A DNA stretch of 64,000 nt, from the NCBI RefSeq assembly GCF_044324785.1, contig NZ_CP172127.1, one strand, 5' to 3'. The notes beneath the pieces are model-generated. The model did no database searches. It was not told the DNA's origin and was given only the letters and a program-made list of their open reading frames with translations. The position numbers were made by a program, and so were the translations under genes. Below, piece by piece: positions 4,343 to 64,000 of this stretch. Every line of letters begins with the position of its first letter. The first letter of the stretch is position 1. The stretch is from Escherichia coli (GTDB lineage Bacteria > Pseudomonadota > Gammaproteobacteria > Enterobacterales > Enterobacteriaceae).

Positions 4343-6805
4343 TCAGACTCCTAACTTCCATGAGAGGGTACGTAGCAGATCGGCAAAGACACCGGCAGCT
4401 GTAACGTCATTGCCCGCACCATATCCGCGCAGCACCAACGGCAGCGGCTGATAATAGTGGCTATAGAAGGCCAGGGCGTTTTCGCCGTTTTTCACTTTGA
4501 ACAGCGGATCATTACCATCCACTTCGGCAATCTTCACGCGACAGACGCCATCTTCATCAATATTGCCAACATAGCGCAAAACTTTTCCTTCATCACGGGC
4601 CTTCGCCACGCGAGCGGCAAAGCGATCGTCGAGCTGTGACAGATTCGCCATAAAAGCGGCAACATCACCCTCGGCGTTAAACTCTGCGGGCAGCACAGGT
4701 TCAATTTCAATATCCGCCAGCTCCAGTTCACGTCCCGTTTCACGAGCGAGAATCAATAGTTTACGCGCCACATCCATACCAGAAAGATCATCTCGCGGGT
4801 CCGGTTCGGTATAACCCATTTCCCGCGCCAGCGTGGTCGCCTCGGAGAAACTCATGCCTTCGTCTAACTTGCCGAAGATATAAGAAAGCGAACCAGAAAG
4901 AATGCCGGAGAACTTCATCAATTCATCACCTGCATTGAGCAGATTTTGCAGGTTCTCAATAACCGGTAATCCAGCCCCAACGTTGGTGTCATAGAGGAAT
5001 TTACGCCGCGATTTTTCCGCCGCATGACGCAACAGATGGTAGTAATCCATCGACGAGGTGTTAGCCTTTTTGTTCGGCGTAACAACGTGGAAACCCTCGC
5101 GCAGGAAGTCGGCATATTGATCCGCCACTGCCTGGCTGGAGGTGCAGTCAACAATGACCGGGTTCAGCAGATGATATTCTTTCACGAGGCGAATTAAGCG
5201 CCCGAGATTAAACGGCTCTTTGGCTTGCGCCAGTTCTTCCTGCCAGTTTTCCAGATTAAGGCCATGTACATTGGTGAGCAGAGCCTTCGAGTTGGCAACA
5301 CCGCAGACACGTAAGTCGATATGTTTATTCTTCAGCCAGCTTTGCTGACGCTTCAGTTGCTCCAGCAGCGCACCGCCAACGCCACCGACGCCAATCACAA
5401 ACACTTCGATAACCTGATCGGTATTGAACAGCATCTGATGAGTAACGCGCACGCCAGTGGTCGCATCATCGTTATTTACCACGACAGAGATTGAGCGTTC
5501 AGAAGATCCCTGAGCAATGGCGACAATGTTGATATTGGCGCGGGCCAGCGCGGCAAAGAATTTCGCCGAGATCCCACGCAAGGTGCGCATACCATCACCT
5601 ACCACCGAGATAATGGCCAGCCGTTCCGTCACCGCCAGCGGCTCCAGTAAGCCTTCTTTCAGTTCCAGGTAGAACTCTTCCTGCATTGCCCGTTCAGCTC
5701 GCACACAGTCGCTTTGTGGAACGCAGAAACTGATACTGTATTCGGAAGATGATTGCGTAATCAGCACCACGGAAATACGGGCGCGTGACATCGCTGCAAA
5801 GACGCGCGCCGCCATGCCGACCATTCCTTTCATCCCCGGACCAGAAACGCTGAACATTGCCATGTTATTCAGATTGGAAATGCCCTTGACCGGTAATTCG
5901 TCTTCATCACGGCTGGCACCAATGAGCGTACCTGGTGCTTGAGGATTTCCGGTATTTTTAATCAGGCAAGGGATCTGGAACTGGGCGATGGGGGTAATTG
6001 TGCGGGGGTGAAGAACTTTAGCGCCGAAGTAGGAAAGCTCCATCGCTTCCTGGTAGGACATCGACTTCAACAACCTCGCATCGGGCACCTGACGCGGGTC
6101 GCAGGTATAGACCCCGTCAACGTCCGTCCAAATCTCGCAACAATCGGCGCGTAAACAGGCAGCCAGCACCGCAGCAGAGTAGTCGGAACCGTTGCGTCCA
6201 AGCACCACCAGTTCGCCTTTTTCATTACCGGCGGTGAAACCTGCCATCAGCACCATGTGATCAGCCGGAATACGACTTGCCGCAATACGGCGGGTGGACT
6301 CAGCAATATCGACGGTAGATTCGAGGTAATGCCCCACTGCCAGCAGTTTTTCGACCGGATCGATAACGGTAACGTTGTGACCGCGCGCTTCTAATACGCC
6401 GGCCATAATGGCGATCGACATTTTCTCGCCACGGCAAATCAGCGCAGCGTTGATGCTATCCGGGCACTGCCCCAACAAACTAATGCCATGCAGGACATGT
6501 TTTATTTGGGCAAATTCCTGGTCGACGAAAGTTTTCAGTTGCGCCAGCGGGAATCCCGGCTGAGCGGCGGCGAGTCCCGTCAGAAGTTCGGCAAAAATAC
6601 GTTCGGCATCGCTGATATTGGGTAAAGCATCCTGGCCGCTAATGGTTTTTTCAATCATCGCCACCAGGTGGTTGGTGATTTTGGCGGGGGCAGAGAGGAC
6701 GGTGGCCACCTGCCCCTGCCTGGCATTGCTTTCCAGAATATCGGCAACCCGCAGAAAACGTTCTGCATTTGCCACTGATGTACCGCCGAACTTCAACACT
6801 CGCAT
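4343..6805 (-). CDS. thrA: Bifunctional aspartokinase I / homoserine dehydrogenase I
   Basis: ORF track 4343..6847; start set at the internal [17 protein letters not shown] (820 aa) as in K-12. Confidence 0.96.
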
Positions 6806-6830
6806 GGTTGTTACCTCGTTACCTTTGGTC

Positions 6831-6862
6831 GAAAAAAAAGCCCGCACTGTCAGGTGCGGGCT
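6831..6862 (-). terminator. thr attenuator (rho-independent terminator of the leader transcript)
   Basis: Minus-strand transcript reads AGCCCGCACCUGACAGUGCGGGC followed by a U8 run, directly downstream of thrL. Confidence 0.9.
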
Positions 6863-6885
6863 TTTTTCTGTGTTTCCTGTACGCG

Positions 6886-6954
<69 letters not shown>

Positions 6955-7001
6955 TGTTGTGTACTCTGTAATTTTTATCTGTCTGTGCGCTATGCCTATA
7001 T

Positions 7002-7030
7002 TGGTTAAAGTATTTAGTGACCTAAGTCAA
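7002..7030 (-). promoter_or_regulatory. thr operon promoter (-35 TTGACT, 17-bp spacer, -10 TAACCA on the minus strand)
   Basis: Hexamers read from the sequence at 7025-7030 and 7002-7007 (reverse complement); matches the known thr promoter region. Confidence 0.65.
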
Positions 7031-7164
7031 TAAAATTTTAATTTACTCACGGCAGGTAACCAGTTCAGAAGCTGCTATCAGACACTCTTTTTTTAATCCA
7101 CACAGAGACATATTGCCCGTTGCAGTCAGAATGAAAAGCTGAAAAATACTTACTAAGGCGTTTT

Positions 7165-7851
7165 TTATTTGGTGATATTTTTTTCAATATCATGCAGCAA
7201 ACGGTGCAACATTGCCGTGTCTCGTTGCTCTAAAAGCCCCAGGCGTTGTTGTAACCAGTCGACCAGTTTTATGTCATCTGCCACTGCCAGAGTCGTCAGC
7301 AGTGCCATGGCTCGTTCGCGTAAAGCTTGCAGTTGATGTTTGTCTGCCGTTGTGTCACTTTTCGCCGGTTGTTGTATTAATGTTGCTAATTGATAGCAAT
7401 AGACCATCACCGCCTGCCCAAGATTGAGCGAAGGATAATCCGCCACCATCGGCACACCAGTAAGAACGTCAGCCAACGCTAACTCTTCGTTAGTCAGCCC
7501 GGAATCTTCGCGACCAAACACCAGCGCGGCATGGCTCATCCATGAAGATTTTTCCTCTAACAGCGGCACCAGTTCTACTGGCGTAGCGTAGTAATGATAT
7601 TTCGCCCGACTGCGCGCAGTGGTGGCGACAGTGAAATCGACATCGTGTAACGATTCAGCCAGTGTCGGGAAAACTTTAATATTATCAATAATATCACCAG
7701 ATCCATGTGCGACCCAGCGGGTGGCTGGCTCCAGGTGCGCCTGACTATCGACAATCCGCAGTTTGCTAAACCCCATCGTTTTCATTGCCCGCGCCGCTGC
7801 CCCAATATTTTCTGCTCTGGCGGGTGCGACCAGAATAATCGTTATACGCAT
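7165..7851 (-). CDS. lasT: SpoU/TrmH-family tRNA/rRNA methyltransferase LasT
   Basis: ORF track 7165..7872; start set at MRITIILVAPARAENIGAAARAMK (228 aa). Confidence 0.9.
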   Translation of the reverse strand: MRITIILVAPARAENIGAAARAMKTMGFSKLRIVDSQAHLEPATRWVAHGSGDIIDNIKVFPTLAESLHDVDFTVATTARSRAKYHYYATPVELVPLLEEKSSWMSHAALVFGREDSGLTNEELALADVLTGVPMVADYPSLNLGQAVMVYCYQLATLIQQPAKSDTTADKHQLQALRERAMALLTTLAVADDIKLVDWLQQRLGLLEQRDTAMLHRLLHDIEKNITK

Positions 7852-8250
7852 ATTGCCACTCTTCTTGATCAAATAACCGCGAACCGGGTGATCACTGTCA
7901 ACTTATTACGCGGTGCGAATTTACAAATTCTTAACGTAAGTCGCAGAAAAAGCCCTTTACTTAGCTTAAAAAAGGCTAAACTATTTCCTGACTGTACTAA
8001 CGGTTGAATTGTTAAAAAATGCTACATATCCTTCTGTTTACTTAGGATAATTTTATAAAAAATAAATCTCGACAATTGGATTCACCACGTTTATTAGTTG
8101 TATGATGCAACTAGTTGGATTATTAAAATAATGTGACGAAAGCTAGCATTTAGATACGATGATTTCATCAAACTGTTAACGTGCTACAATTGAACTTGAT
8201 ATATGTCAACGAAGCGTAGTTTTATTGGGTGTCCGGCCCCTCTTAGCCTG

Positions 8251-8391
8251 TTATGTTGCTGTTAAAATGGTTAGGATGACAGCCGTTTTTGACACTGTCG
8301 GGTCCTGAGGGAAAGTACCCACGACCAAGCTAATGATGTTGTTGACGTTGATGGAAAGTGCATCAAGAACGCAATTACGTACTTTAGTCAT
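8251..8391 (-). CDS. yjjY: Small protein YjjY (46 aa)
   Basis: Reverse-complement translation MTKVRNCVLDALSINVNNIISLVVGTFPQDPTVSKTAVILTILTAT*; below the ORF-track size cut-off. Confidence 0.7.
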   Translation of the reverse strand: MTKVRNCVLDALSINVNNIISLVVGTFPQDPTVSKTAVILTILTAT

Positions 8392-8486
8392 GTTACGCCG
8401 ATCATGTTAATTTGCAGCATGCATCAGGCAGGTCAGGGACTTTTGTACTTCCTGTTTCGATTTAGTTGGCAATTTAGGTAGCAAAC

Positions 8487-9203
8487 ATGCAGACCCCGCA
8501 CATTCTTATCGTTGAAGACGAGTTGGTAACACGCAACACGTTGAAAAGTATTTTCGAAGCGGAAGGCTATGATGTTTTCGAAGCGACAGATGGCGCGGAA
8601 ATGCATCAGATCCTCTCTGAATATGACATCAACCTGGTGATCATGGATATCAATCTGCCGGGTAAGAACGGTCTTCTGTTAGCGCGTGAACTGCGCGAGC
8701 AGGCGAATGTTGCGTTGATGTTCCTGACTGGCCGTGACAACGAAGTCGATAAAATTCTCGGCCTCGAAATCGGTGCAGATGACTACATCACCAAACCGTT
8801 CAACCCGCGTGAACTGACTATTCGTGCACGCAACCTGCTGTCCCGTACCATGAATCTGGGGACTGTCAGCGAAGAACGTCGTAGCGTTGAAAGCTACAAG
8901 TTCAATGGTTGGGAACTGGACATCAACAGCCGTTCGTTGATCGGCCCTGATGGCGAGCAGTACAAGCTGCCGCGCAGCGAGTTCCGCGCCATGCTTCACT
9001 TCTGTGAAAACCCAGGCAAAATTCAGTCCCGTGCTGAACTGCTGAAGAAAATGACCGGCCGTGAGCTGAAACCGCACGACCGTACTGTAGACGTGACGAT
9101 CCGCCGTATTCGTAAACATTTCGAATCTACGCCGGATACGCCGGAAATCATCGCCACCATTCACGGTGAAGGTTATCGCTTCTGCGGTGATCTGGAAGAT
9201 TAA
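8487..9203 (+). CDS. arcA: Aerobic respiration control response regulator ArcA
   Basis: ORF track 238 aa, [43 protein letters not shown]... Confidence 0.97.
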
Positions 9204-9220
9204 TCGGCTTTACCACCGTC

Positions 9221-9258
9221 AAAAAAAACGGCGCTTTTTAGCGCCGTTTTTATTTTTC
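9221..9258. terminator. Bidirectional rho-independent terminator between convergent arcA and creD
   Basis: A8 run, stem aacggcgc / gcgccgtt with 6-nt loop, then T-rich run; read directly. Confidence 0.85.
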
Positions 9259-9262
9259 AACC

Positions 9263-10615
9263 TTATTTCCAGATACGTAATTCATCGTCCGTTGTAACTT
9301 CTTTACTGGCTTTCATTTTCGGCAGTGAAAACGCATACCAGTCGATATTACGGGTCACAAACATCATGCCGGCCAGCGCCACCACCAGCACACTGGTTCC
9401 CAACAACAGCGCGCTATCGGCAGAGTTGAGCAGTCCCCACATCACACCATCCAGCAACAACAGCGCGAGGGTAAACAACATGCTATTGCGCCAGCCTTTC
9501 AATACCGCCTGCAAATAAATACCGTTCATTAACGCCCCAATCAGACTGGCGATTATCCATGCCACGGTAAAACCGATATGTTCAGAAAGCGCCAGCAAGA
9601 GCAAATAAAACATCACCAATGAAAGCCCCACCAGCAAATATTGCATTGGGTGTAAACGTTGCGCGGTGAGCGTTTCAAAAACAAAGAACGCCATAAAAGT
9701 CAGTGCAATCAGCAGAATGGCGTACTTAGTCGCCCGGTCAGTTAATTGGTATTGATCGGCTGGCGTCGTCACTGCGACGCTAAACGCCGGGAAGTTTTCC
9801 CAGCCGGTATCATTGCCTGAAGCAAAACGCTCACCGAGATTATTAGCAAACCAGCTGCTTTGCCAGTGCGCCTGAAAACCTGACTCGCTAACTTCCCGTT
9901 TGGCTGGTAGAAAATCACCTAAAAAACTGGGATGCGGCCAGTTGCTGGTTAAGGTCATTTCGCTATTACGCCCGCCAGGCACCACAGAAAGATCGCCGGT
10001 ACCGCTTAAATTCAGGGCCATATTCAGCTTCAGGTTCTGCTTCCGCCAGTCCCCTTCAGGTAAAGGGATATGCACGCCCTGCCCGCCTTGCTCTAACCCG
10101 GTGCCGGGTTCAATGGTCAGCGCCGTTCCGTTAACTTCAGGCGCTTTCACCACACCAATACCACGCGCATCCCCGACGCTAATCACAATAAATGGCTTGC
10201 CTAAGGTGATATTTGGCGCGTTGAGTTCGCTAAGACGCGAAACATCGAAATCGGCTTTTAGCGTTAAATCACTGTGCCAGACCTGACCGGTATAAATCCC
10301 TATCTTGCGTTCTTCCACGTTCTGATTGCCATCAACCATCAATGACTCAGGTAACCAAAAATGGATAAAACTTCGTTTCCGCTCCACGGTTTTATCCTCT
10401 TCCTGCACCGTATAAAGCTCGGTCACAGGAATAGCGATGAGCGGCCCAACGAGTTTTTGCGGCCCGCTGGTACTTTGGCGAATCGCATCTTCCACATCGC
10501 TACGGTAATCAGCACGTTCGACAATCACCTGCCGAATCAGCATTATCGGAATCAACAACAGCAATACTGCACCAAACAGGGTGGTCATTTTCCAGAGCAG
10601 GGGGGATTTCAACAT
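9263..10615 (-). CDS. creD: Inner membrane protein CreD
   Basis: ORF track 450 aa; last gene of the creABCD operon. Confidence 0.93.
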   Translation of the reverse strand: MLKSPLLWKMTTLFGAVLLLLIPIMLIRQVIVERADYRSDVEDAIRQSTSGPQKLVGPLIAIPVTELYTVQEEDKTVERKRSFIHFWLPESLMVDGNQNVEERKIGIYTGQVWHSDLTLKADFDVSRLSELNAPNITLGKPFIVISVGDARGIGVVKAPEVNGTALTIEPGTGLEQGGQGVHIPLPEGDWRKQNLKLNMALNLSGTGDLSVVPGGRNSEMTLTSNWPHPSFLGDFLPAKREVSESGFQAHWQSSWFANNLGERFASGNDTGWENFPAFSVAVTTPADQYQLTDRATKYAILLIALTFMAFFVFETLTAQRLHPMQYLLVGLSLVMFYLLLLALSEHIGFTVAWIIASLIGALMNGIYLQAVLKGWRNSMLFTLALLLLDGVMWGLLNSADSALLLGTSVLVVALAGMMFVTRNIDWYAFSLPKMKASKEVTTDDELRIWK

Positions 10616-10672
10616 AGTCTTCTCCTTTGCAATGGCAGCAGGATACGAAGGCTATGTGGGAAGAATTTGAAG

Positions 10673-12097
10673 CTATGTGAAGTGACGGTGAAGTCGAAGC
10701 GAAGCCAGCACGCCACCTTCCTGCACGTTGCGCAGCGTGACTTCGCCGTTAAACAAACGGGCGACCTCACTGACGAACGCCAACCCCAGACCGCTGCTTT
10801 TTTGCCCATTTGCACGCGGCAAAGAGTAAAAGCGTTCAAAAATACGTGAAAGCGCGTAGTCAGGAATACCACTACCGGTATCCAGCACCTTAAGCGTGAC
10901 GTGTTCCTGATCCACTTCGGCGCTTAGCGTGATGCAACCGCTCTCGGGGGTAAAATCGATGGCGTTATCCAGTAAATTTCCCAGCGCCTGCTCCAGTAAC
11001 GCCGGTTCAGCAGCAACATTAACCTCGGTGGGCGTAACATGCAGAGTGATTTTTTTTTCTGCCAACTGCACGGTGCGCGCTTCGCTGACGCGGCGAAATA
11101 ATGCCGCCACATCAACAGCAGTCAGAACGACTTCCTGACGATTCTCCAGTCTTGCCTGGCGTAGTAACGTTTCTACTAATGCCTGCATACGCGCATTTTG
11201 CGTCAGAATGTTGTCAGTAAAACGAGCCACCACTTCCGGCGGCGGACCTTCGCGTAAAATTTCCGCCGCGCCACGAATCGCCGCCAGTGGGCTTTTTAGC
11301 TCATGGGTTAACGCATAAACATACTGCTCAATATAGTTTTTCCCTTCCAGCTTCACGCGCATACTTTCCAGCGCCTGCGCGAGTTTACGCAGCTCGCTAC
11401 TACCGAGATCGGGGAGAGGAACGGGCTTATTGTCAGTGACGGAATCAGCATAGCGAGTGAGCCGGGCAATGGAGCGGTTGATCCACCAAACCATGCCTGC
11501 GCCAATCACCAGTGCAATCCCCAACAAAATGGCGCTGGCCCATAAAATTCGCCGCTCGCTGCGCTTAATGACCGGAGCCATCGCCGCGTTCGGTTTGCCT
11601 ACGCTCAAAACGCCAATAAGCCGCGAGCCGTCCATAATCGGCGCGGCAACATACATCACCGAACTTTCGGGATCGGCAGGATTTTGCAACGTGCTGCGCG
11701 CACCATACTGACCACGCAACGTTAGCCAGACGTCATTCCAGCGCGAATAATCCTGTCCAACGGCTTTATTTGCCGAATCGAACAATACTTTGCCCTGCGC
11801 ATCGGTCATATAGACATGATATTCATTGCGCACTTTGTTAATGCCACCGATATTGGCGCGAAACGGGCGATGCTGTAGCTGATTAAACGCCTGCGCCAGT
11901 TGCCCATGCGTTGGGTCCCCAGAGAGCAAATCGGGACGCGCCAGCTCCGCCAGCAACGTTGCGGTGTCGATCAACGTCCCCTCCGTTGCTCTTCGCACGC
12001 CCGGTTTAACTTCTTTGACAAAAATAGCCAGTACGAACCAGGCCGCCACCGCCACCAGTAAAAAATAGCCCAGCAGCAACCGCATGCCGATACGCAT
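10673..12097 (-). CDS. creC: Sensor histidine kinase CreC
   Basis: ORF track 474 aa; HAMP and HisKA/HATPase motifs; overlaps the creB stop. Confidence 0.95.
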   Translation of the reverse strand: MRIGMRLLLGYFLLVAVAAWFVLAIFVKEVKPGVRRATEGTLIDTATLLAELARPDLLSGDPTHGQLAQAFNQLQHRPFRANIGGINKVRNEYHVYMTDAQGKVLFDSANKAVGQDYSRWNDVWLTLRGQYGARSTLQNPADPESSVMYVAAPIMDGSRLIGVLSVGKPNAAMAPVIKRSERRILWASAILLGIALVIGAGMVWWINRSIARLTRYADSVTDNKPVPLPDLGSSELRKLAQALESMRVKLEGKNYIEQYVYALTHELKSPLAAIRGAAEILREGPPPEVVARFTDNILTQNARMQALVETLLRQARLENRQEVVLTAVDVAALFRRVSEARTVQLAEKKITLHVTPTEVNVAAEPALLEQALGNLLDNAIDFTPESGCITLSAEVDQEHVTLKVLDTGSGIPDYALSRIFERFYSLPRANGQKSSGLGLAFVSEVARLFNGEVTLRNVQEGGVLASLRLHRHFT

Positions 12098-12786
12098 TAC
12101 AGGCCCCTCAGGCTATATCCCATGCCGCGATGAGTATTAATCGGTGAAAGATCGGGGTTGATGGCGCGCAACTTGGCACGCAGCGTTTTAATGTGGGTAT
12201 CGACGGTGCGATCGTAGGTGTCCTGCGCATCTTCCCACACGCTATCCATCAGTTGCTGGCGGGACCAGACGCGGCCTGGCGACTTGAGTAACGTCTTCAG
12301 CAATAAAAACTCATACCGCGTCAGCGCTAATGGCGTGTCAAACCAGCAGATCTGCGCCGCGGGTTCATTCAATTCAAAATGTCCAATACGGATGACGGGA
12401 GACGGCATCGAGAATTTCTTCACCCGACGCAGTAAGGTGCGCACCCTGGCGCACACTTCGCGAGGTGAAAACGGTTTAGCCACGTAGTCGTCAGCGCCAA
12501 TTTCCAGCCCAAGCAGGCGATCGACCTCTTCACTTCGGGCCGTCAGGAACAGTACAGGTAACGCCGGATGGAGCACCAGTAACTGGCGGCACAATTCAAA
12601 GCCGCTAATATCCGGCAGACCAACATCGAGAATCATGACGTCGGGTACCTGCTGGCGAGCTTTATCCAGCACCGGCAAGCCTCGCTCAAAGACCTCGACG
12701 GCAAAACCTTCCTGCTGCAACATGTAGACCAGCGTGTCGGCTATCCCTTGCTCATCTTCCACTAACCAGACCGTTTCCCGTTGCAT
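12097..12786 (-). CDS. creB: Response regulator CreB (OmpR family)
   Basis: ORF track 229 aa, MQRETVWLVEDEQGIADTLVYMLQQEGF... Confidence 0.95.
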   Translation of the reverse strand: MQRETVWLVEDEQGIADTLVYMLQQEGFAVEVFERGLPVLDKARQQVPDVMILDVGLPDISGFELCRQLLVLHPALPVLFLTARSEEVDRLLGLEIGADDYVAKPFSPREVCARVRTLLRRVKKFSMPSPVIRIGHFELNEPAAQICWFDTPLALTRYEFLLLKTLLKSPGRVWSRQQLMDSVWEDAQDTYDRTVDTHIKTLRAKLRAINPDLSPINTHRGMGYSLRGL

Positions 12787-12798
12787 AAATCGCCTCTG

Positions 12799-13272
12799 TT
12801 ATTGCCGCCACGGCATGACAGGAACCGCGCTAATCGCGTTTTTCGGCGAACCTTCTACAACTTTGTCGGAGTAAGCCAGATAAGCGAGCGCGTTGCGTTT
12901 GGCGTCATAAAAGCGCACGACCTGTAACGACTTAAAGACCAGGGACGTGCGTTTTTTGAATACTACCTCGCCCTGAGCTTTGCCGTTTTTAATACGATCC
13001 GACAGTTCAATCGGCCCGACTTGCTGACAAGAAATGGCCGCATCGGAGGTATCTTCCGCCAGACCCAATCCCCCTTTAATACCACCGGTTTTCGCCCGGC
13101 TCACATAACAGGTGACATTTTTCACATCGGGATCGTCAAAGGCTTCCACAACAATTTTGTGATCCGGGCCGATCATTTTAAATACGGTGTCGACCGAACC
13201 AATCTCTTCTGCATGAGCCAATGGCCCCAGCATTATCAGGCTTAAAGACAGGATCAAATGCTTGTATTTCAT
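12799..13272 (-). CDS. creA: Periplasmic protein CreA
   Basis: ORF track 157 aa with signal peptide [21 protein letters not shown]. Confidence 0.92.
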
Positions 13273-56370: not shown

Positions 56371-57393
56371 TCAGAAAGTAATTACACCCTTAATCAACTC
56401 ACGATTGTTAATCACATCGCGCTCGTAGGTTTCTGCCAGCGTGGCGAACGGATAGCGATGGGTTAACATCATGTCAGCAGTGATTTTTCCTTCCGCCATC
56501 AGTCGACCGACTTTAGCAAAATCTTCCGGCGTGGCGTTGCGGCTGCCCATCATCGTCGTTTCTTTTTTATGGAATTCCGGATCGGAGAACTGCAACTCAC
56601 CTTTAAACAGGCCGACAAATACCACCGTGCCGCCGTGACGAATCAGATTCACGGTGTTATTCATCGCATGTTGATTACCTGTCGCGTCGATCACTTTCTG
56701 CGCCAGCGAACCACCAAACTGCGCCCGCAGCTGCGCGTCAAAATCTTCGGCTGACGGGTCCAGCACGGGCAACTCCAGACGCGTTGCCACATGTTCACGG
56801 CGCGCCGGACTGGTATCCGCCACCACTACCTGTGCGCCATCGGCTTTAGCGATTGCCGCCGCGCCCAGACCGATTGGCCCCGCCCCGACCACCAGCACCT
56901 GCTCGCCGGGAGCAATGGCTGCGCGACGCACCGCATGAGCGCTAATCGCGAAAGGTTCAATCAATGCTGCCGCCTGCGGGTCAATACCGTCTGCGGGCAA
57001 AATGTTCGCCACCGGCACGCTCAAATACTCACTAAAACCGCCATCCTGATGCACGCCAATGACTGAAATTTTTTCACAGCAATTGGTACGCCCGCTTTTA
57101 CACGCCGGGCATTGCTGACAAGAAATATACGGAATTACCGCAACTTGCTGTCCGATATTAAAATTGTGAATGTTTTTTCCTGATTCAATAATCTCCCCAC
57201 ATATTTCATGGCCTAAAACGCGTGGATAACTAAAAAATGGTTGATTGCCCGCCCAGGCATGAATATCTGTACCGCAAATCCCGACGGTTTTAATTTTAAT
57301 TAATGCTTCGTTATCGCCTGGCACCGGTCTTTCCCGGACTGTCCATACTAAATTCTTTATTTCCTGACAAATTAATACTTTCATTGTGGACAT
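56371..57393 (-). CDS. lgoD: L-galactonate 5-dehydrogenase (Zn-dependent MDR family)
   Basis: ORF track 340 aa; Zn-ADH motifs (GHEICGEI, CxxCxxC, GAGPIGLGAAA). Confidence 0.92.
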   Translation of the reverse strand: MSTMKVLICQEIKNLVWTVRERPVPGDNEALIKIKTVGICGTDIHAWAGNQPFFSYPRVLGHEICGEIIESGKNIHNFNIGQQVAVIPYISCQQCPACKSGRTNCCEKISVIGVHQDGGFSEYLSVPVANILPADGIDPQAAALIEPFAISAHAVRRAAIAPGEQVLVVGAGPIGLGAAAIAKADGAQVVVADTSPARREHVATRLELPVLDPSAEDFDAQLRAQFGGSLAQKVIDATGNQHAMNNTVNLIRHGGTVVFVGLFKGELQFSDPEFHKKETTMMGSRNATPEDFAKVGRLMAEGKITADMMLTHRYPFATLAETYERDVINNRELIKGVITF

Positions 57394-57531
57394 GATTCAC
57401 CGCTCCTTTTATTTTATGACTTTCAGATATCGTCGAATTTATAAGAGCGCCTGAATTTACCCATAAAATATGCGGATGATCACGCATAAAAATGTTTTAA
57501 ATCGGTTTTTAATGCCGGACTGGAGGGAAGA

Positions 57532-58437
57532 ATGAGTCGTTCGCAGAATTTACGTCATAACGTCATAAATCAGGTGATTGAAGATATGGCGAGGGGCAAT
57601 ATTCCTTCTCCGCTGCCTTCACAAAGTGGGCTGGCAGAAATGTATAACATCAGTCGCACTACGGTACGCCACATACTCCAGCATTTAAGCGCATGTGGCG
57701 TGCTCACCCTGGTGGGGAAAAATTATGTTATCGCCCGCAAACCCGAACAGAACGATGGATTTGATTGCATCACGGCCTCGCTGAAAGAGCAAAACCGTCT
57801 TTTCGAGCAGGCATTTTTCACCATGATTAACCTGCGCCAGTTACGCGCGGGAGAAAGCTTTTCCGAACTTCAGCTGGCGCGAGCGGCAGGCGTCAGTCCG
57901 GTAGTAGTACGAGAATATCTTTTGAAATTCGGTCGTTATAATCTTATTCAAAGCGAAAAGCGCGGCCAGTGGAGCATGAAGCAGTTCGATCAATCCTACG
58001 CCGAGCAACTGTTTGAGCTACGCGAAATGCTCGAAACACATTCCCTGCAACACTTTCTCAACCTTCCCGATGACGATCCCCGCTGGTTGCAGGCGAAAAC
58101 CATGCTCGAACGTCACAGGACATTGCGCGACAGCATTGGCAGCAACTTTCGGATGTTTTCTCAATTAGACCGTGATTTTCATGCCATGCTGTTATCCGCT
58201 GCTGACAACATCTTTTTTAATCAATCACTTGAAATTATCTCGGTGATCTTTCATTTTCACTATCAATGGGATGAAAGCGATCTCAAGCAGCGCAATATCA
58301 TTGCTGTTGATGAGCATATGACCATTCTCAGCGCCCTGATTTGCCGTAGCGATTTAGATGCAATAACGGCATTGCGAAACCATCTGGATACCGCCAAACA
58401 ATCAATGATTCGTTCCATCAGGCAACATCACCGATAA
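57532..58437 (+). CDS. lgoR: GntR-family regulator of L-galactonate catabolism
   Basis: ORF track 301 aa; N-terminal wHTH and C-terminal FCD-like domain; divergent from lgoD. Confidence 0.88.
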   Translation: MSRSQNLRHNVINQVIEDMARGNIPSPLPSQSGLAEMYNISRTTVRHILQHLSACGVLTLVGKNYVIARKPEQNDGFDCITASLKEQNRLFEQAFFTMINLRQLRAGESFSELQLARAAGVSPVVVREYLLKFGRYNLIQSEKRGQWSMKQFDQSYAEQLFELREMLETHSLQHFLNLPDDDPRWLQAKTMLERHRTLRDSIGSNFRMFSQLDRDFHAMLLSAADNIFFNQSLEIISVIFHFHYQWDESDLKQRNIIAVDEHMTILSALICRSDLDAITALRNHLDTAKQSMIRSIRQHHR

Positions 58438-58607
58438 ATTAAGTACAGATTAAAAACATTGATTCTTGGTTTATATCACTATGTTGTATTAATGCAGTAT
58501 TAATCCAGGCGATTGTTCTGCCTATAAGGAAATACATAGGGAATAAACGATGCTGGAAGTATTACTCTCAGCCATCATTTAACTCCCTATTACTGGTAGC
58601 GATAAAA

Positions 58608-60260
58608 TTATCGGCTATCCATGATTAACGTTTCCAGCACATCTAATTCACTGACTATTTTTGCCAGTGTTTCATCACTGACTTCTTGCCGTGCACGCAT
58701 CTGGTAAATAGCCGCACGCCTGGCATTTAACGCTGCCAGATTAAATGTTCTTTCCAGCTTCGCGCGCTGCATATGTAAAGAATTATCATTTTCCGACATA
58801 TCATCTTCGCTACGCCGCATATAACCGATAACTCTGGCCCCTGTTTCCATAATCAACTCGTTGTCGAGGTTTTCTGTACTGGTGCGTAGCAAACGTTGCT
58901 CAGTCTTTTGCACACTGAGTATGGCCATTTTGGCCATAAACAGATCGGCAGCTTCCTCTTCTTTTTGCCGGTTATCGCTGAAAATGCCCACATTTTTCCC
59001 CAGTAGTAACGGCAGAATAATAATGCCGCAAACCAGCGAAAAGAGGATCACACCTGTGGCGAGAAATACCAGTAAGTAACGCCCGGGAAAAGATGTGCCA
59101 TCCGGCAGCAATAACGGGATAGAAAGCACCCCCGCAAGCGTGATGGCTCCGCGCACCCCCGCAAAGGTCGCCAGCAGCATATGACGCGTTTTATATCCAG
59201 CAAACAGCATCGGATGTTTGCCGGGTCGTTTACGGCTATACAGACGCATCAGCCAAAGCCAGCCCAAGCGCACAACCATTAACGCCAGGTAGATCCAAAT
59301 GACATCAAGGAGCAGCGATCCGGTGTCTACCAGTGGATCGTTTTCTGCACGGATCAGTGATTCCGTAATAATGCCCGGCAGTTGTAAGCCTAAAATCAGA
59401 AACACCATGCCGTTAAAGACATATTCAAGCATCGACCAGCTACTTTTAGCTTTAATTCTCAGGCGAATAGGCGCGTGGTGGACTACGCCAATGCGACTGG
59501 TTGTTAACCCCGCGGCGACAGCGGCAAGAATGCCAGATAAGCCAAAATGTTCCGCAACCAGATAAACAATAAACGGCAACAGAAGCATCAATACAATCTG
59601 AATGGAAGGTTCATCGTGAGCATATCGACTGATCAACAGCAGCCCTTTGCCATATAACCAGGTAACAGCGATCCCCACGGCAATACCGCCCAACGCAACG
59701 ACAAAAAACGCAATGGTTGCGCCATGAACGCTGAATTCCATCGTTCCCATCGTCACTGCAACAGCAAATTTCAACGCCACCAAGCCGGAAGCATCATTCA
59801 TCAACGCTTCGCCTTCGAGCACTTCCTGGATGTTTTTGCTGATACGCCCTTTCCCGACAATCCCCAGCAACGCCACGGCATCGGTAGGCGACAACACGGC
59901 GGCTAATGCGAAAGCAGCGATGAGCGGCACATTCGGTAAGAGTAAATGAATCACATAGCCGACACCAAAAATAGTGATTAGCACCAACACAAGCGCCAGG
60001 CTGACAATTTCCCGACTGTGCTTGATCAATTCTTTAGGTTGTATTTTTGAGCTTTCAGCAAACAACAAGGGGGGTATAAACAATAAGAGAAAAAGTTCAG
60101 GATTGAATTCCACATGCAGACCAAATATGGGCTGGGCCAGTATAGCGCCAGCGGCAATCTGGATTAAAGGAAGTGGTATCTGAACAGGAGACAGACGCGT
60201 AAGCACGCTGGTTAATGATACTACCAACGTAAGAATTAAAATTGTTAAAAGTATTTCCAT
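58608..60260 (-). CDS. CPA1-family Na+(K+)/H+ antiporter (NhaP-type) with C-terminal cytoplasmic domain
   Basis: ORF track 58608..60281; multi-TM; CPA1 signatures AVLSPTDAVALLGIV and EGEALMNDASGLVALKF; start may be 60281 or 60260. Confidence 0.85.
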   Translation of the reverse strand: MEILLTILILTLVVSLTSVLTRLSPVQIPLPLIQIAAGAILAQPIFGLHVEFNPELFLLLFIPPLLFAESSKIQPKELIKHSREIVSLALVLVLITIFGVGYVIHLLLPNVPLIAAFALAAVLSPTDAVALLGIVGKGRISKNIQEVLEGEALMNDASGLVALKFAVAVTMGTMEFSVHGATIAFFVVALGGIAVGIAVTWLYGKGLLLISRYAHDEPSIQIVLMLLLPFIVYLVAEHFGLSGILAAVAAGLTTSRIGVVHHAPIRLRIKAKSSWSMLEYVFNGMVFLILGLQLPGIITESLIRAENDPLVDTGSLLLDVIWIYLALMVVRLGWLWLMRLYSRKRPGKHPMLFAGYKTRHMLLATFAGVRGAITLAGVLSIPLLLPDGTSFPGRYLLVFLATGVILFSLVCGIIILPLLLGKNVGIFSDNRQKEEEAADLFMAKMAILSVQKTEQRLLRTSTENLDNELIMETGARVIGYMRRSEDDMSENDNSLHMQRAKLERTFNLAALNARRAAIYQMRARQEVSDETLAKIVSELDVLETLIMDSR

Positions 60261-60940
60261 ATAATAAACAGGCTTCCTCATTCATAAATAATGGATATTA
60301 TTAATTTAACTTCATAAAAAGCGCCCTGGTTAGCACTTAACGTTAATCATTAATCACAGCGTTCACTCACATGCTCAGGAGGAAACCAGTGAGATGAGTT
60401 TTCCCGTTGATAACAAATTCACCATGTGAATATTTACTACCTTTAACCGTTGTAACGAATCATCCGTTACTCTTTGATCTCCTTGCCGAACAAGTTGTTT
60501 AGTGAATGATGGCTTTCTTTTAACGTCAGCATGAATTATACGTTCAGCAAATGTATTAAATCAGCACTAAATAAATTTAATGGATACCACCATTCTGCGT
60601 CAACACTTAGTTTTTATCTGTAAAAATAGCCGCAGCCAAATTAATGCTTTTATTTTTAATAAATCATCAACCGAATAAGAGATCTTATCAGCGGTAACTA
60701 AACTCATCAGTGGGTGTTCCTTGTAACGTCATACATTACATAACTTTAAGATATACAATCAAAAAATGCATTAAAAACCGATTAAAAGCAGCAAAGTATT
60801 ACCCGGTGCACGAATTTATGACACATTTGCAGCCATTCCGCTATTCACTGACTACTTTTCAGTAATGACTGCTTTTTCATAAGGTTTCACTCCCGACAAC
60901 AATGTTGGAGTTTTATTTCCTTAGCATGGAGTAAGTAAAG

Positions 60941-61912
60941 ATGAGCAAAATAATAGCGATGCTAATTACTGTCAGTACCCTTTTTTTACCGTCAATAATC
61001 CAGGCAAAACCTATTTCGATAAAAGTTGCCTATGAAAATAACCCTGGAGAACCCCTGGATGTGGTCATGCGTTACTGGGCAGACCTATTAAATAAAAAAA
61101 GTAATGGCGAAATAACACTTGCGCTCTATCCAAGTTCCCAATTGGGCTCAAAACAGGATGTCACCGAGCAAGCCATGATGGGCATGAATGTCATAACCTT
61201 GAGTGATGTGGCCTTTCTTGCCGATTATGAACCCGATTTGGGTATTTTGTTTGGACCGTATCTGACTGACGATCCGCAAAAACTGTTCAAAATATATGAA
61301 AGCGACTGGTTTAAACAAAAAAATGAAAGTCTGAAGAAAAAGGGAATTCATGTGGTAATGAATAATTATCTCTATGGCACTCGACAGATTATTTCGAAAA
61401 AACCCATTCGCACTGTTGACGATCTCGCAGGCTTAAAAATTCGTGTTCCTAATAACGTCATGCAAATAAAAGCCATTCAGGCGATGGGGGCAACACCAAC
61501 TCCCATGCCATTAGGCGAAGTTTATCCCGCATTAACCCAGGGCGTTATTGACGGCGTAGAAAACCCAATTTCAGTGCTGCAAGGGCAAAAACTGTATGAG
61601 CAGGCAAGATATCTGACAATGGTTAACTACCTGACAAATACCTCAGTATGGATAGGTGGTGAAGCCTTCTTTAGCACCCTTTCACCAGAACAACTGGAGA
61701 TGATCCACCAGACCGGCTATGAAGCGGGTGTCTATAGCCAGAAACTCACTCTTGAACGTGATGCCGAAATGTTGAAAACCATGCAGGCAGCGGGCGTCGA
61801 AGTGATCTATCCCGATACTGGACCATTCCAGAAGAAAGCACGCGAAGTTTACTCTCAATTCCCGGAATGGACACCAGGTCTGTACGAAACCATTCAACAG
61901 CAACTGCAATAA
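60941..61912 (+). CDS. TRAP transporter substrate-binding protein (DctP family)
   Basis: ORF track 323 aa with signal peptide; GGAG RBS upstream; first of three co-oriented genes with the DctP/DctQ/DctM size pattern. Confidence 0.8.
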   Translation: MSKIIAMLITVSTLFLPSIIQAKPISIKVAYENNPGEPLDVVMRYWADLLNKKSNGEITLALYPSSQLGSKQDVTEQAMMGMNVITLSDVAFLADYEPDLGILFGPYLTDDPQKLFKIYESDWFKQKNESLKKKGIHVVMNNYLYGTRQIISKKPIRTVDDLAGLKIRVPNNVMQIKAIQAMGATPTPMPLGEVYPALTQGVIDGVENPISVLQGQKLYEQARYLTMVNYLTNTSVWIGGEAFFSTLSPEQLEMIHQTGYEAGVYSQKLTLERDAEMLKTMQAAGVEVIYPDTGPFQKKAREVYSQFPEWTPGLYETIQQQLQ

Positions 61913-61975
61913 GCATTAATGCTCAGCGTCCTGCCTCATCTCTCTTAGGCAGGACACGCACTAACAGGAGGTTTC

Positions 61976-62449
61976 ATGCGTCTTTTTGGCAAAGTGGCAG
62001 AATTTAGTGCTGCCTTTGCGCTATTCGTTCTGGTTGTGATGACAATTGGAGCGGTATTTATGCGTTATTTCATCGGCCAACCGCTTCAATGGACAGAAGA
62101 AATGTCGGGAATGCTGATGATTTGGGTGGTGATGTTAGGTGGAGTAGTGGCGGAACGTGACAGGGCGCACCTGACCATTCCCTTCCTGATGGAGATGCTT
62201 CCAGGCAAGCTCAGGCGTGTTATTGCAGTACTGGTCGCCGTTCTCTCCATCGCACTGCTGCTGTATATGGCCTGGCTGGGCTACCGACTAGCCGAAATGG
62301 CGCAGTTTAAAGTGACACAAATTCTGAAGGTTTCCTGGTTCTGGATCGATCTGGCGGTCCCTGTCGGTGCACTGGCAACGGCTATTTATACCCTCTACTG
62401 GTTAATACACGATATAAAACAATCCGATAGCGGAGACAAAATGCAATGA
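61976..62449 (+). CDS. TRAP transporter small permease (DctQ family)
   Basis: ORF track 157 aa, four predicted TM helices; overlaps the next gene by 4 nt. Confidence 0.8.
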   Translation: MRLFGKVAEFSAAFALFVLVVMTIGAVFMRYFIGQPLQWTEEMSGMLMIWVVMLGGVVAERDRAHLTIPFLMEMLPGKLRRVIAVLVAVLSIALLLYMAWLGYRLAEMAQFKVTQILKVSWFWIDLAVPVGALATAIYTLYWLIHDIKQSDSGDKMQ

Positions 62450-63717
62450 GTTGGTTATTGATTATTCCGCTAATGATCGTCTGTTTGTTTCTCAACATTC
62501 GGGTCTATCTGGCGATGTTTATTGGCATCATCGCTTACTTTTTATTCTTCTCCAGCGTACCGATTGAAATTGCCGTGCAAAGACTGATCGCGCCAACGCA
62601 AAGCCCATCATTGCTGGCAATTCCGTTTTTTATCTTGCTCGGCACACTAATGAGCTACACCGGCATTGCCGAACGCATCCTGCACATTGCCAATGTTCTG
62701 GTGGGGAAAATGCGCGGCGGACTGGGCGTGGCAAACATTCTCGTCAGCACCATGATGGGCGGCGTCAGCGCCTCTAACCTTGCTGACGCGGCGATGCTGT
62801 CGCGCATGATGGTGCCGGAGATGGAGCGTAAAGGCTACAATCGCGCGTTTGCCGCCGCCATTACCGCTGGTGGCTCGTTAGTCACCCCGATCATACCGCC
62901 GGGAATAGCCCTGATTATTTACGGTCTGGTTGCCGACGTCTCTATCGGAAAAATGTTTATCGCCGGACTGGTACCTGGTTTGCTATGCGCAGTCGTATTG
63001 ATGTTTACCGTCTACCTGGTCGCCCGCAAAACTAACGCCAAACCCTCGCGTGAAAGCTGGCCTACGGGCAAAGAGGTGGTGTTCTCGCTGGGACAGGCCT
63101 GGCCTGCGCTGTTCCTCATTTTTGCTGTGGTGGGTGGTATTCGCGCTAACATTTTCACCCCAACAGAAGCAGGCGCAGCAGCGGTGTTAATCGTGCTGGC
63201 GATTGGCTTTTTTATCTATCGTGAAATGCGGATTTCTCATGTCGTCAAAGCATTGGGCGAAACGGCACGCGCTACCGCATCGGTGATGCTGGTAATCATG
63301 GCCAGCGCCGCGTTGGGATGGATTTTCTCAATGGAACATGCTGGTGTCGCAGTGGCGAATTTTGTGACTTCGCTGACCGAAAATAAATATATGTTCCTGT
63401 TGATTATCAACATATTGCTGCTGACGCTGGGGATGTTTCTTGAAGGAAACGCCATTTTGCTGATCCTGGTACCACTATTAAAACCGGTGGTCGAACACTT
63501 TGGCATCGATCCGGTGCATTTTGGCATCATCATGATCTTCAACCTGTCGATTGGCGCATTCACGCCACCGGTAGGTACCGTGATGCTGCTGGTATGTAAC
63601 ATCACGCAAGTTTCGGTGGGAAATTTCTTTAAACAATCCCTACCCCTACTGGCGGCTCTCCTGTTAATGCTAATGCTGGTGACATATATCCCGGCGATTT
63701 CACTGTTCCTGGTTTAA
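62446..63717 (+). CDS. TRAP transporter large permease (DctM family)
   Basis: ORF track 423 aa, highly hydrophobic, about 12 TM helices. Confidence 0.85.
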   Translation: MSWLLIIPLMIVCLFLNIRVYLAMFIGIIAYFLFFSSVPIEIAVQRLIAPTQSPSLLAIPFFILLGTLMSYTGIAERILHIANVLVGKMRGGLGVANILVSTMMGGVSASNLADAAMLSRMMVPEMERKGYNRAFAAAITAGGSLVTPIIPPGIALIIYGLVADVSIGKMFIAGLVPGLLCAVVLMFTVYLVARKTNAKPSRESWPTGKEVVFSLGQAWPALFLIFAVVGGIRANIFTPTEAGAAAVLIVLAIGFFIYREMRISHVVKALGETARATASVMLVIMASAALGWIFSMEHAGVAVANFVTSLTENKYMFLLIINILLLTLGMFLEGNAILLILVPLLKPVVEHFGIDPVHFGIIMIFNLSIGAFTPPVGTVMLLVCNITQVSVGNFFKQSLPLLAALLLMLMLVTYIPAISLFLV

Positions 63718-63759
63718 TAATAAAAACGCCGGATGAAATACTCATCCGGCGTCATTGCG

Positions 63760-64000
63760 TTAAAACGTTTCCCAGTTCTCCTCGCTATCTGCCACAGCCA
63801 TTTTACGCGGCGTAGCTGGCGTCACGGTTTTTACCACAGCCGATGTTTCACGCTGATGTTGCTGAATCCGGAACACTGCCACAGCTTCGGTCAGGCGACT
63901 GGCCTGCTCTTCCAGCGCGGCGGCGGCGGCGGCAGATTCTTCCACCAGCGCGGCGTTCTGTTGAGTTACCCGGTCCATCTCAGCAACCGCTAAGCCAACC
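63760..64000 (-). CDS. tsr: Methyl-accepting chemotaxis protein Tsr, C-terminal part (N-terminus beyond the window end)
   Basis: ORF track 63760..63978 ends ...[18 protein letters not shown], the NWETF pentapeptide of a high-abundance chemoreceptor. Confidence 0.9.

Follow-up and report, generated by a model that had tools for sequence, protein, structure and literature searches.

In Escherichia coli K-12, the genes lgoT, lgoR, and lgoD (lgoR-lgoT/lgoD; yjjM-yjjL/yjjN) are induced on L-galactonate, LgoD oxidizes L-galactonate to D-tagaturonate, and lgoRT and lgoD form divergent operons that respond to glucuronate as well. LgoT is a single major facilitator superfamily (MFS; ACS family) galactonate:H+ symporter, and in MG1655 its gene is the only one between tsr and lgoR (tsr-lgoT-lgoR-lgoD-opgB). 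We analyzed a stretch of 64,000 nucleotides (nt) of E. coli DNA (contig NZ_CP172127.1 of assembly GCF_044324785.1; hereafter, the window) that has in common with K-12 the tsr-opgB slot, the dehydrogenase and regulator genes, and a sequence box in their divergent spacer, but in which LgoT is replaced by an unrelated tripartite ATP-independent periplasmic (TRAP) transporter, dependent on a solute-binding protein (SBP) and encoded by dctPQM, accompanied by a gene for a CPA1 Na+/H+ antiporter (cpa1). In the window, as in K-12, a homologous box-plus-promoter sequence precedes the transporter gene. It is likely, in our judgment, that this region is an alternative lgo allele in which the H+-coupled LgoT has been displaced by a DctPQM TRAP transporter for L-galactonate, with cpa1 probably expressed independently and co-inherited.

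Several other described systems resemble parts of this locus. SiaPQM-type TRAP transporters are Na+-coupled, and SiaPQM (Haemophilus influenzae, Vibrio cholerae, Photobacterium profundum) is the mechanistic model of SBP-gated, Na+-coupled elevator transport. The window system has the three components and the pair of arginines for the ligand carboxylate in common with SiaPQM, but the SBPs are only 26-29% identical, the substrates differ, and Q and M, which are fused in H. influenzae, are encoded by separate genes in the window. YiaMNO of K-12 (2,3-diketo-L-gulonate) is likewise a DctP-type acid-sugar TRAP transporter; its locus, regulon, and substrate are all different from those considered here, and the window proteins fall below the cut-offs of its models (DctM, 238 bits to YiaN with an equivalog cut-off of 800; DctQ, 38 bits to YiaM with a cut-off of 260). 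The DctP fold and both arginines are also shared with Oant_3902 (PDB 4OVT) and Asuc_0158 (4O8M), from the Enzyme Function Initiative (EFI) screen (Vetting et al. 2015), although the regulators and operon layouts differ. The antiporter resembles YjcE, the NhaP2-type CPA1 protein of K-12, in its C-terminal cytoplasmic domain, its match to TIGR00831, and its TD and ND motifs, but it is a second, accessory copy that belongs to a distinct clade and lies at another locus, ~310 kb away in K-12 coordinates.

Locus organization and distribution

A preliminary description of the window had placed an antiporter gene on the minus strand and genes for a TRAP SBP, a small permease, and a large permease on the plus strand between lgoR and tsr, and had given lgoT as the sole occupant of this slot in K-12. 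Both statements hold: all four open reading frames (ORFs) lie where they had been placed (Table 1), and MG1655 carries neither TRAP nor CPA1 genes at this position. Similarity to K-12 stops ~25 nt past the lgoR stop codon (~58460) and restarts exactly at the tsr stop codon (63760), where the 3' end of the minus-strand tsr gene begins. The dctPQM genes are contiguous and co-oriented, dctQ and dctM overlapping by 4 nt, and all six genes of the region (lgoD, lgoR, cpa1, dctP, dctQ, and dctM) are intact. The cpa1 ORF spans 58608-60281 on the minus strand; RefSeq places the start at M8, which gives 58608-60260 and a protein of 550 residues. The RefSeq annotation is already available in generic terms ('Na+/H+ antiporter', 'C4-dicarboxylate TRAP transporter substrate-binding protein'), and a literature search found no paper specific to the TRAP/cpa1 version of the E. 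coli lgo locus. The TRAP locus treated in the BEN2908 paper is another one; its zinc-dependent alcohol dehydrogenase (Zn-ADH) shows 55% identity to YjjN.

The distribution of the two arrangements was surveyed in 5,426 complete E. coli genomes, a comparison that the preliminary description had proposed. Of these, 856, about one in six (~16%), contain the 5.3-kb block at a coverage of at least 80%, in each case on the chromosome. A 350-nt lgoT probe matches 4,518 genomes, a 350-nt cpa1 probe matches 857, and the two probes concatenated match 5,375; because the last count is the exact sum of the other two, no genome has both lgoT and cpa1. The 51 genomes that match neither probe presumably represent a third state of the slot, a deletion or another cassette. 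cpa1 and dctPQM are found together in essentially every carrier (857 versus 856 genomes). Carriers include O26:H11 strain 11368 and O103 and O145 Shiga toxin-producing E. coli (STEC), at ~99.0-99.4% identity, as well as UTI89, 536, and clone D i14, at ~96.5%; the type strain, DSM 30083, carries lgoT. We take DSM 30083, UTI89, and 536 to be B2 strains, in which case the distribution would be patchy within phylogroups. Outside the species, Escherichia sp. E4742 shares the order tsr-dctMQP-cpa1-lgoR-lgoD-opgB. The TRAP-for-lgoT locus is thus a real and fairly ordinary strain-variable locus. In one STEC-like strain, 06_3044 (NZ_CP074942.1), an IS3-family transposase lies within the block, and the match is split into two pieces over 6.6 kb.

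A conserved box ahead of the transporter genes

A box of 21-23 nt, a candidate operator, occurs three times in the region (Table 1). Box 1, in the lgoD-lgoR spacer, ends 17 nt ahead of the lgoR ATG and is the sole conserved block of this spacer in the alignment with K-12; the box is also present in the lgoD-lgoR spacers of K-12 and Citrobacter. A second box follows lgoR in K-12, ahead of lgoT, and in Citrobacter, ahead of dctP. Box 2 of the window is homologous to the one ahead of K-12 lgoT and forms the left edge of an insert that contains cpa1. Boxes 2 and 3 are direct repeats 2,332 nt apart (repeat family D2), box 3 (23 nt) is 91% complementary to box 1 (inverted-repeat pair I1), and boxes 1 and 2 form a further inverted pair (I2). 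The 18-nt core of the box occurs 2 times in the 64-kb window, against 0.06 occurrences expected.

The homology extends beyond box 3 itself. The ~35 nt that follow it align with the sequence after the boxes of K-12 lgoT and Citrobacter dctP, and ~55 nt upstream of dctP (~60762-60815) are homologous to the lgoR-lgoT spacer of K-12 and the lgoR-dctP spacer of Citrobacter. The spacer between cpa1 and dctP, which the preliminary description had given as an AT-rich divergent region of ~680 bp and which has that length and character (Table 1), is overall the most divergent feature between the window and UTI89; its cpa1-proximal part is variable and its dctP-proximal part conserved, with box 3 inside a run of more than 100 nt free of mismatches to UTI89. 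The conservation of the box and of its downstream sequence therefore indicates that transporter genes have been swapped behind a conserved control element. We regard the box 3 region as a candidate operator and promoter of dctPQM. Transcription of dctPQM would start from the kind of box-plus-promoter that precedes K-12 lgoT and, as the element is the same, we propose that dctPQM belongs to the LgoR (and/or ExuR/UxuR) regulon.

Other control elements were sought in the same region. No Rfam family matched 57300-64000 at E <= 1, and so no riboswitch or leader of a described family, cation riboswitches included, was found. In a consensus scan for promoters and terminators, promoter-like sites were no commoner than in shuffled sequences, and the dctM/tsr hairpin alone was convincing. 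A canonical ExuR/UxuR palindrome was considered for the box, but by eye only one half-site resembles the consensus. Small ORFs in the cpa1-dctP spacer (25-51 residues) were dismissed for want of support. A perfect 6-bp inverted repeat (TATGCG...CGCATA, 57469-57488) lies upstream of box 1; K-12 is without its left arm.

The TRAP transporter

DctP scores above the cut-offs of TIGR00787 (179.5 bits; cut-off 175.05) and NF037995 (177.7 bits; cut-off 50), and DctM above that of TIGR00786 (397.4 bits; cut-off 268.45). The N-terminus of DctP is a hydrophobic signal peptide that ends in IIQA, ahead of KP. An AlphaFold (AF2) model of DctP built with a 35-sequence alignment has a pLDDT of 90.4 outside residues 1-19; a single-sequence run gave 34. 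Among PDB entries, 4OVT (Oant_3902 of O. anthropi) matches best, with 70% identity over 299 residues (E = 6e-147); Foldseek aligns the model to it (4ovt_A) with a target-normalized TM of 0.95 and a probability of 1.00, and the next Foldseek match is 4O8M (A. succinogenes Asuc_0158; 42% identity, target-normalized TM 0.93). R148 and R168 of DctP align without gaps (phmmer, 7a5q_A) to R125 and R145 of VcSiaP, the equivalents of which in HiSiaP are R127 and R147, and both are invariant in 35 DctP homologues. By gene set, fold, and both carboxylate-binding arginines, we assign the window system to the DctP-type TRAP transporters. In sequence and in structure DctP is also close to Oant_3902, for which a ligand-bound structure has been solved, and we place it in a putative Oant_3902-like L-galactonate/L-fuconate subfamily. 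A list of TRAP systems 'with known ligands' from Vetting et al. includes Oant_3902, and according to PMC5507952 a TRAP system of dual L-fuconate/L-galactonate specificity, located in an L-galactonate locus, was characterized by Vetting et al. 2015.

A scan of one genome per species gave 65 loci with a gene for a DctP relative. Three genomes of the Citrobacter amalonaticus type (L003, L004, and L050) have the order opgB-lgoD-lgoR-dctPQM-tsr, with dctP starting ~185 nt past lgoR in the position and orientation of K-12 lgoT. This locus occupies the same slot as that of the window, has boxes in the same two positions, and encodes a DctP, DctQ, and DctM with 90%, 80%, and 94% identity, respectively, but it is without the antiporter, and its lgoR-dctP spacer of ~185 nt compares with 2.5 kb in the window. 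As the DNA identity is only 76-78%, Citrobacter is not the direct donor. Adjacent lgoD-lgoR genes likewise link the TRAP operon to L-galactonate catabolic genes in the window and in Escherichia sp. E4742; the exceptions are Edaphovirga and Affinibrenneria (see below).

More distant orthologues are found with related enzymes. In ~50 of the 65 loci, a Zn-ADH with 30-41% identity to LgoD adjoins the TRAP genes. The operon of Ochrobactrum sp. L035 (SBP 67% identical) encodes a tagaturonate-reductase-like protein, an ExuR-like GntR regulator, a UxaA-family dehydratase, a Zn-ADH, and DctPQM, and that of Pseudomonas fluorescens L012 encodes KdgR, DctPQM, a Zn-ADH, tagaturonate reductase, and a UxaA-family dehydratase. 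The enzymes predicted from these two operons make up the route from L-galactonate through D-tagaturonate and D-altronate to 2-keto-3-deoxygluconate (KDG).

Four independent lines of evidence, namely synteny, control region, orthologue context, and structure, point to L-galactonate uptake, and the TRAP system is best read as a high-affinity L-galactonate importer that would do the job of LgoT; it probably imports L-fuconate too. An acid-sugar importer of the lgo locus, possibly for L-galactonate, had been suggested in the preliminary description, and the same four lines support it. In the mechanism that we envisage, DctP would capture L-galactonate, and probably its 6-deoxy analogue L-fuconate, via R148 and R168 and hand it to DctQM for cation-coupled uptake, likely with Na+ by analogy with SiaPQM; LgoD would then convert L-galactonate to D-tagaturonate, which could enter the UxaB/UxaA hexuronate pathway.

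The antiporter

CPA1 matches TIGR00831 from position 1 to position 525 of the 525-position model (526.1 bits; cut-off 279.6) and is 59% identical to K-12 YjcE over its full length. In the numbering of the 550-residue protein it has the motifs PTDA at 124-127 (TD 125-126), MNDAS at 154-158 (ND 155-156), and VRGA at 369-372 (Arg370). We assign it to the NhaP2/YjcE-type antiporters of TIGR00831, with predicted electroneutral Na+(K+)/H+ exchange activity.

The antiporter had been proposed to recycle Na+ for the TRAP transporter. In such a circuit DctQM would import Na+ with the acid sugar and CPA1 would expel Na+ in exchange for H+, so that uptake would effectively be driven by the proton-motive force. 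This idea is compatible with our best explanation of the TRAP part, and several observations favor it: cpa1 and dctPQM occur together in essentially all carriers and in one non-coli Escherichia, both are under purifying selection, and the antiporter retains the TD and ND motifs that would be expected if it is an active CPA1 exchanger. The closest relatives of the antiporter outside Escherichia, which are 77-78% identical, are found in Limnobaculum, 'Klebsiella sp. I138', and Edaphovirga, and in the first two a TRAP operon and a gene for a GntR/FCD regulator likewise lie divergent to the antiporter gene, across a spacer of ~700-750 bp. The TRAP transporter there belongs to another subfamily, the TakP/keto-acid type (DctM 28% identical; best PDB matches include 2HZK and 7UG8). 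On one metagenome contig (L076), an antiporter gene lies one gene from that of a DASS Na+-coupled anion symporter, near a gene for a ManD-type dehydratase.

Other observations argue against a circuit, which we therefore consider rather unlikely. cpa1 lies in a discrete insert (Table 1) whose upstream DNA is not conserved across genera, similarity (~70%) being confined to the coding region; in blastn comparisons with the three Citrobacter genomes, 58459-60927 is unmatched except for 50 nt (60770-60819) that match the Citrobacter spacer. Within 10 kb of the TRAP loci fetched from other genera, that of syntenic Citrobacter included, no antiporter gene is found, and in Edaphovirga the antiporter gene is ~115 kb from the TRAP genes, beside the plasmid-type genes Rep3, ParA, and ParG. 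Box 3 is 150 nt from dctP versus ~510 nt from cpa1. Independent recurrences number only two, Na+-coupled transporters are common chance neighbors, and E. coli already has NhaA, NhaB, ChaA, and YjcE. An independent recurrence that involves another TRAP subfamily is suggestive but insufficient for claiming a functional Na+ circuit, and a dedicated role in Na+ recycling is speculative because the antiporter gene sits in a separate 2.3-kb insert and is missing from Citrobacter and the other fetched TRAP loci; the proposal thus finds no support in conservation. Unlikely, too, is the broader notion that the YjcE-like CPA1 clade is a dedicated mobile 'Na+ return' partner recruited beside two unrelated TRAP subfamilies, which would make the E. 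coli block a self-contained Na+-circuit module. We favor the reading in which cpa1 would encode a cation/proton antiporter that is expressed on its own and has been co-inherited with the TRAP genes.

A tblastn search of plasmids found no close relative of the antiporter on true plasmids: a 98% match was to a chromosome-sized record, and the remaining matches were YjcE-like, at 58% or less. In I138 (L070, 5169-11650), the antiporter/TRAP pair is located between genes for an AcrB-family RND efflux pump and an Fe-S/pyridine-nucleotide oxidoreductase. The flanking genes are near-identical in layout to those in Limnobaculum xujianqingii (L073, 1064-7433; L074), and for this reason the assignment of I138 to Klebsiella may be worth checking.

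Two loci contain hybrids of the paralogous antiporter genes. In L072 (10001-11653), the first ~850 nt of the hybrid gene are 97-100% identical to yjcE and the rest 99-100% identical to cpa1, in the context ghxP-hybrid-lgoR-lgoD-opgB; in L075 (1133-2782), the first ~500 nt derive from cpa1 and the remainder from yjcE, in the context dctP-hybrid-LysR-lrgAB-actP-yjcH-acs. These contexts therefore indicate large inversions (~310 kb in K-12 coordinates) by recombination of the ~62%-identical paralogues and, since the crossover points differ, at least two separate events.

Substrate and regulation

A number of points weigh against assigning the TRAP transporter to L-galactonate and to the lgo regulon. 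In Edaphovirga cremea (L057, 10001-16651), the orthologous DctP is 83% identical and lies outside any lgo context; dctPQM is followed, in the same orientation, by genes for 3-oxo-tetronate kinase, 3-oxo-tetronate 4-phosphate decarboxylase, a YgbI-type repressor, and 2-oxo-tetronate isomerase, which suggests that this transporter serves the catabolism of C4 acid sugars (threonate or erythronate). The orthologue of Affinibrenneria (81%) is flanked on one side by a DASS symporter with DcuSR and on the other by a LysR regulator, a dicarboxylate-type context. The specificity of the clade may therefore be broader or shifting. The ligands of the two closest structures are presumably L-fuconate (4OVT) and L-galactonate (4O8M). 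For the E. coli locus, the sequences show the gene identities, the synteny, the strict exclusivity with lgoT, the shared box, the purifying selection, and the pathway context of orthologues; the substrate, the regulator, the coupling ion, and the role of the antiporter are inferred. The box is not a clean palindrome, and LgoR, ExuR, and UxuR are all candidates for the protein that would bind it. Finally, co-transcription of the lgoRT type is impossible in the window, because the convergent cpa1 gene separates lgoR from dctPQM.

These points leave room for an alternative in which the transporter takes up some other acid sugar (L-fuconate, L-gulonate, or a C4 tetronate such as D-threonate, L-threonate, or D-erythronate) and carriers have lost L-galactonate uptake. 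Besides the Edaphovirga and Affinibrenneria contexts, the alternative could draw on the presumed ligand of the nearest solved homologue, L-fuconate and not L-galactonate, and on the dual specificity reported for such systems (PMC5507952). In Escherichia and Citrobacter, however, the operon is fixed behind lgoR-lgoD and has kept the lgoT-type control region and its box, and orthologues with 66-72% identity in alpha- and gammaproteobacteria lie in complete L-galactonate operons, among whose examined neighbors no fuconate dehydratase or hydrolase was detected. Purifying selection in carriers extends to lgoD and lgoR themselves, and this would be hard to understand in strains with no importer for the substrate of their products. 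The alternative thus appears improbable to us, and we retain L-galactonate as the preferred substrate.

Selection on the locus was examined by comparing the window (B1-type) with UTI89 (B2; Table 1). Non-synonymous change is strongly depleted, and the locus is therefore under selection and not decaying. AT-rich spacers (33-35% GC) and dctP (43% GC), a promoter signal that is not above chance, and occasional disruption (the IS3 element in 06_3044 and truncated antiporter proteins in the protein database) might suggest a horizontally acquired islet that is silenced by H-NS or decaying and now without function, but with all six genes intact, at least 80% of the block kept in 856 of 857 carriers, none of the 12 nucleotide differences in dctP changing DctP, and the arrangement conserved in a separate Escherichia species, this is very improbable.

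Implications for strain-level metabolism

In ~16% of sequenced E. coli, then, a catabolic locus known from K-12 relies on another, strictly alternative transporter. It is a clean natural case in which one transporter has displaced a non-orthologous one while the control region has been conserved. SBP-dependent TRAP transporters are normally of much higher affinity than MFS permeases, so that carriers may scavenge L-galactonate or L-fuconate at concentrations that strains with lgoT could not use. L-Galactonate is derived from plant pectin or ascorbate and L-fuconate from mucin fucose. A niche difference in the gut or urinary tract is possible; the carriers include the uropathogens UTI89 and 536 as well as O26 and O103 STEC. 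Metabolic models and phenotype predictions based on K-12, and hence on lgoT, would be wrong for carrier strains. Mechanistically the locus offers nothing new, as the transporter subfamily has already been characterized in other bacteria; it is of interest mainly for the metabolic diversity among strains and, less so, for the possible pairing of antiporter and TRAP transporter, which raises a modest question about Na+ cycling.

Haplotype borders and base composition

The preliminary description had delimited the variable interval as 58438-63759. The gene coordinates stand, but the divergent haplotype exceeds this interval, since LgoR is divergent (87% identity to K-12 LgoR) and lgoD is a mosaic. 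LgoD is 94% identical to its K-12 counterpart, with all differences within the first ~100 residues (BLASTP). In the DNA alignment, the 3' 750 nt of lgoD (56371-57120, 55.6% GC) are ~99% K-12-like, and the 5' 273 nt (57121-57393, 38.5% GC) are clearly divergent, with a majority of positions still matching K-12. We place a recombination breakpoint, the left junction of the two haplotypes, inside lgoD near 57120; the protein is nevertheless intact. On the right, the window and K-12 each have their own GC-rich hairpin ahead of tsr (in K-12, in the lgoT/tsr intergene); that of the window is probably a bidirectional terminator.

The divergent block (57121-63759) has a GC content of 45.5%, compared with 51.6% for the window. 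The earlier statement that the whole segment is AT-richer than its flanks is accurate for the spacers (33-35%), dctP (43%), and the 5' end of lgoD (38.5%), in which the deficit is located, but not for cpa1 (47.8%), dctQ (49.4%), and dctM (50.9%), which are near core values.

Table 1. Features of the alternative lgo locus, with the basis of each assignment and the differences between the window and UTI89
Feature	Position	Strand	Basis or sequence	Amino-acid differences	Nucleotide differences
lgoD, L-galactonate 5-dehydrogenase, mosaic allele	56371..57393	-	BLASTP and DNA alignment with K-12, GC	2	24
Box 1, 21-23-nt candidate operator in the lgoD-lgoR divergent spacer	57491..57515	-	reverse complement GCATTAAAAACCGATTTAAAACA
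lgoR allele, GntR/FCD regulator	57532..58437	+	ORF list, profile match, comparison with K-12	2	16
Box 2, directly after the lgoR stop codon	58438..58460	+	ATTAAGTACAGATTAAAAACATT
cpa1 insert, 2.3 kb, cpa1 and ~500 bp of its own AT-rich upstream DNA, between boxes 2 and 3	58459..60767	.	blastn, repeats
cpa1, CPA1 Na+/H+ antiporter, 550 residues, YjcE paralogue	58608..60260	-	TIGR00831	10	50
AT-rich divergent spacer cpa1/dctP, 680 bp, 34.6% GC	60261..60940	.	computed
Box 3, 150 nt upstream of dctP	60768..60790	+	GCATTAAAAACCGATTAAAAGCA
dctP, TRAP periplasmic solute-binding protein, 323 residues	60941..61912	+	TIGR00787, NF037995	0	12
dctQ, small TRAP membrane subunit	61976..62449	+	Pfam PF04290, E = 2e-30	4	9
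dctM, large TRAP membrane subunit	62446..63717	+	TIGR00786	1	19
GC-rich hairpin, convergent dctM/tsr intergene	63725..63753	.	terminator scan, K-12 comparison

The last ~80 residues of Tsr in the window are 97% identical to K-12 and 90% identical to strain N3, whose genome is the closest to the window; even haplotypes that are otherwise near-identical therefore vary at the 3' end of tsr. In strain N3 (L001, 16217-19200), btsT and an adjoining hypothetical gene downstream of tsr are annotated as frameshifted pseudogenes.

A related TRAP locus next to gltA

A second TRAP locus adjoins gltA in at least 661 complete genomes of E. coli and also in E. albertii and E. whittamii (L006, L007, and L009, ~5000-12800; IAI39 and CE10). 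Identity to the window proteins is 72-73% for the SBP and 76-77% for DctM, and the neighboring genes encode a GntR regulator, an RraA/aldolase-like protein, a Zn-ADH (~35% identity to LgoD), a short-chain dehydrogenase/reductase (SDR), and a UxaA-family dehydratase. The locus is probably an aldonate catabolic islet in its own right, with a binding specificity related to that of the window system. The UxaA-family dehydratase gene is split, and RefSeq annotates two adjacent UxaA-family genes at this position.

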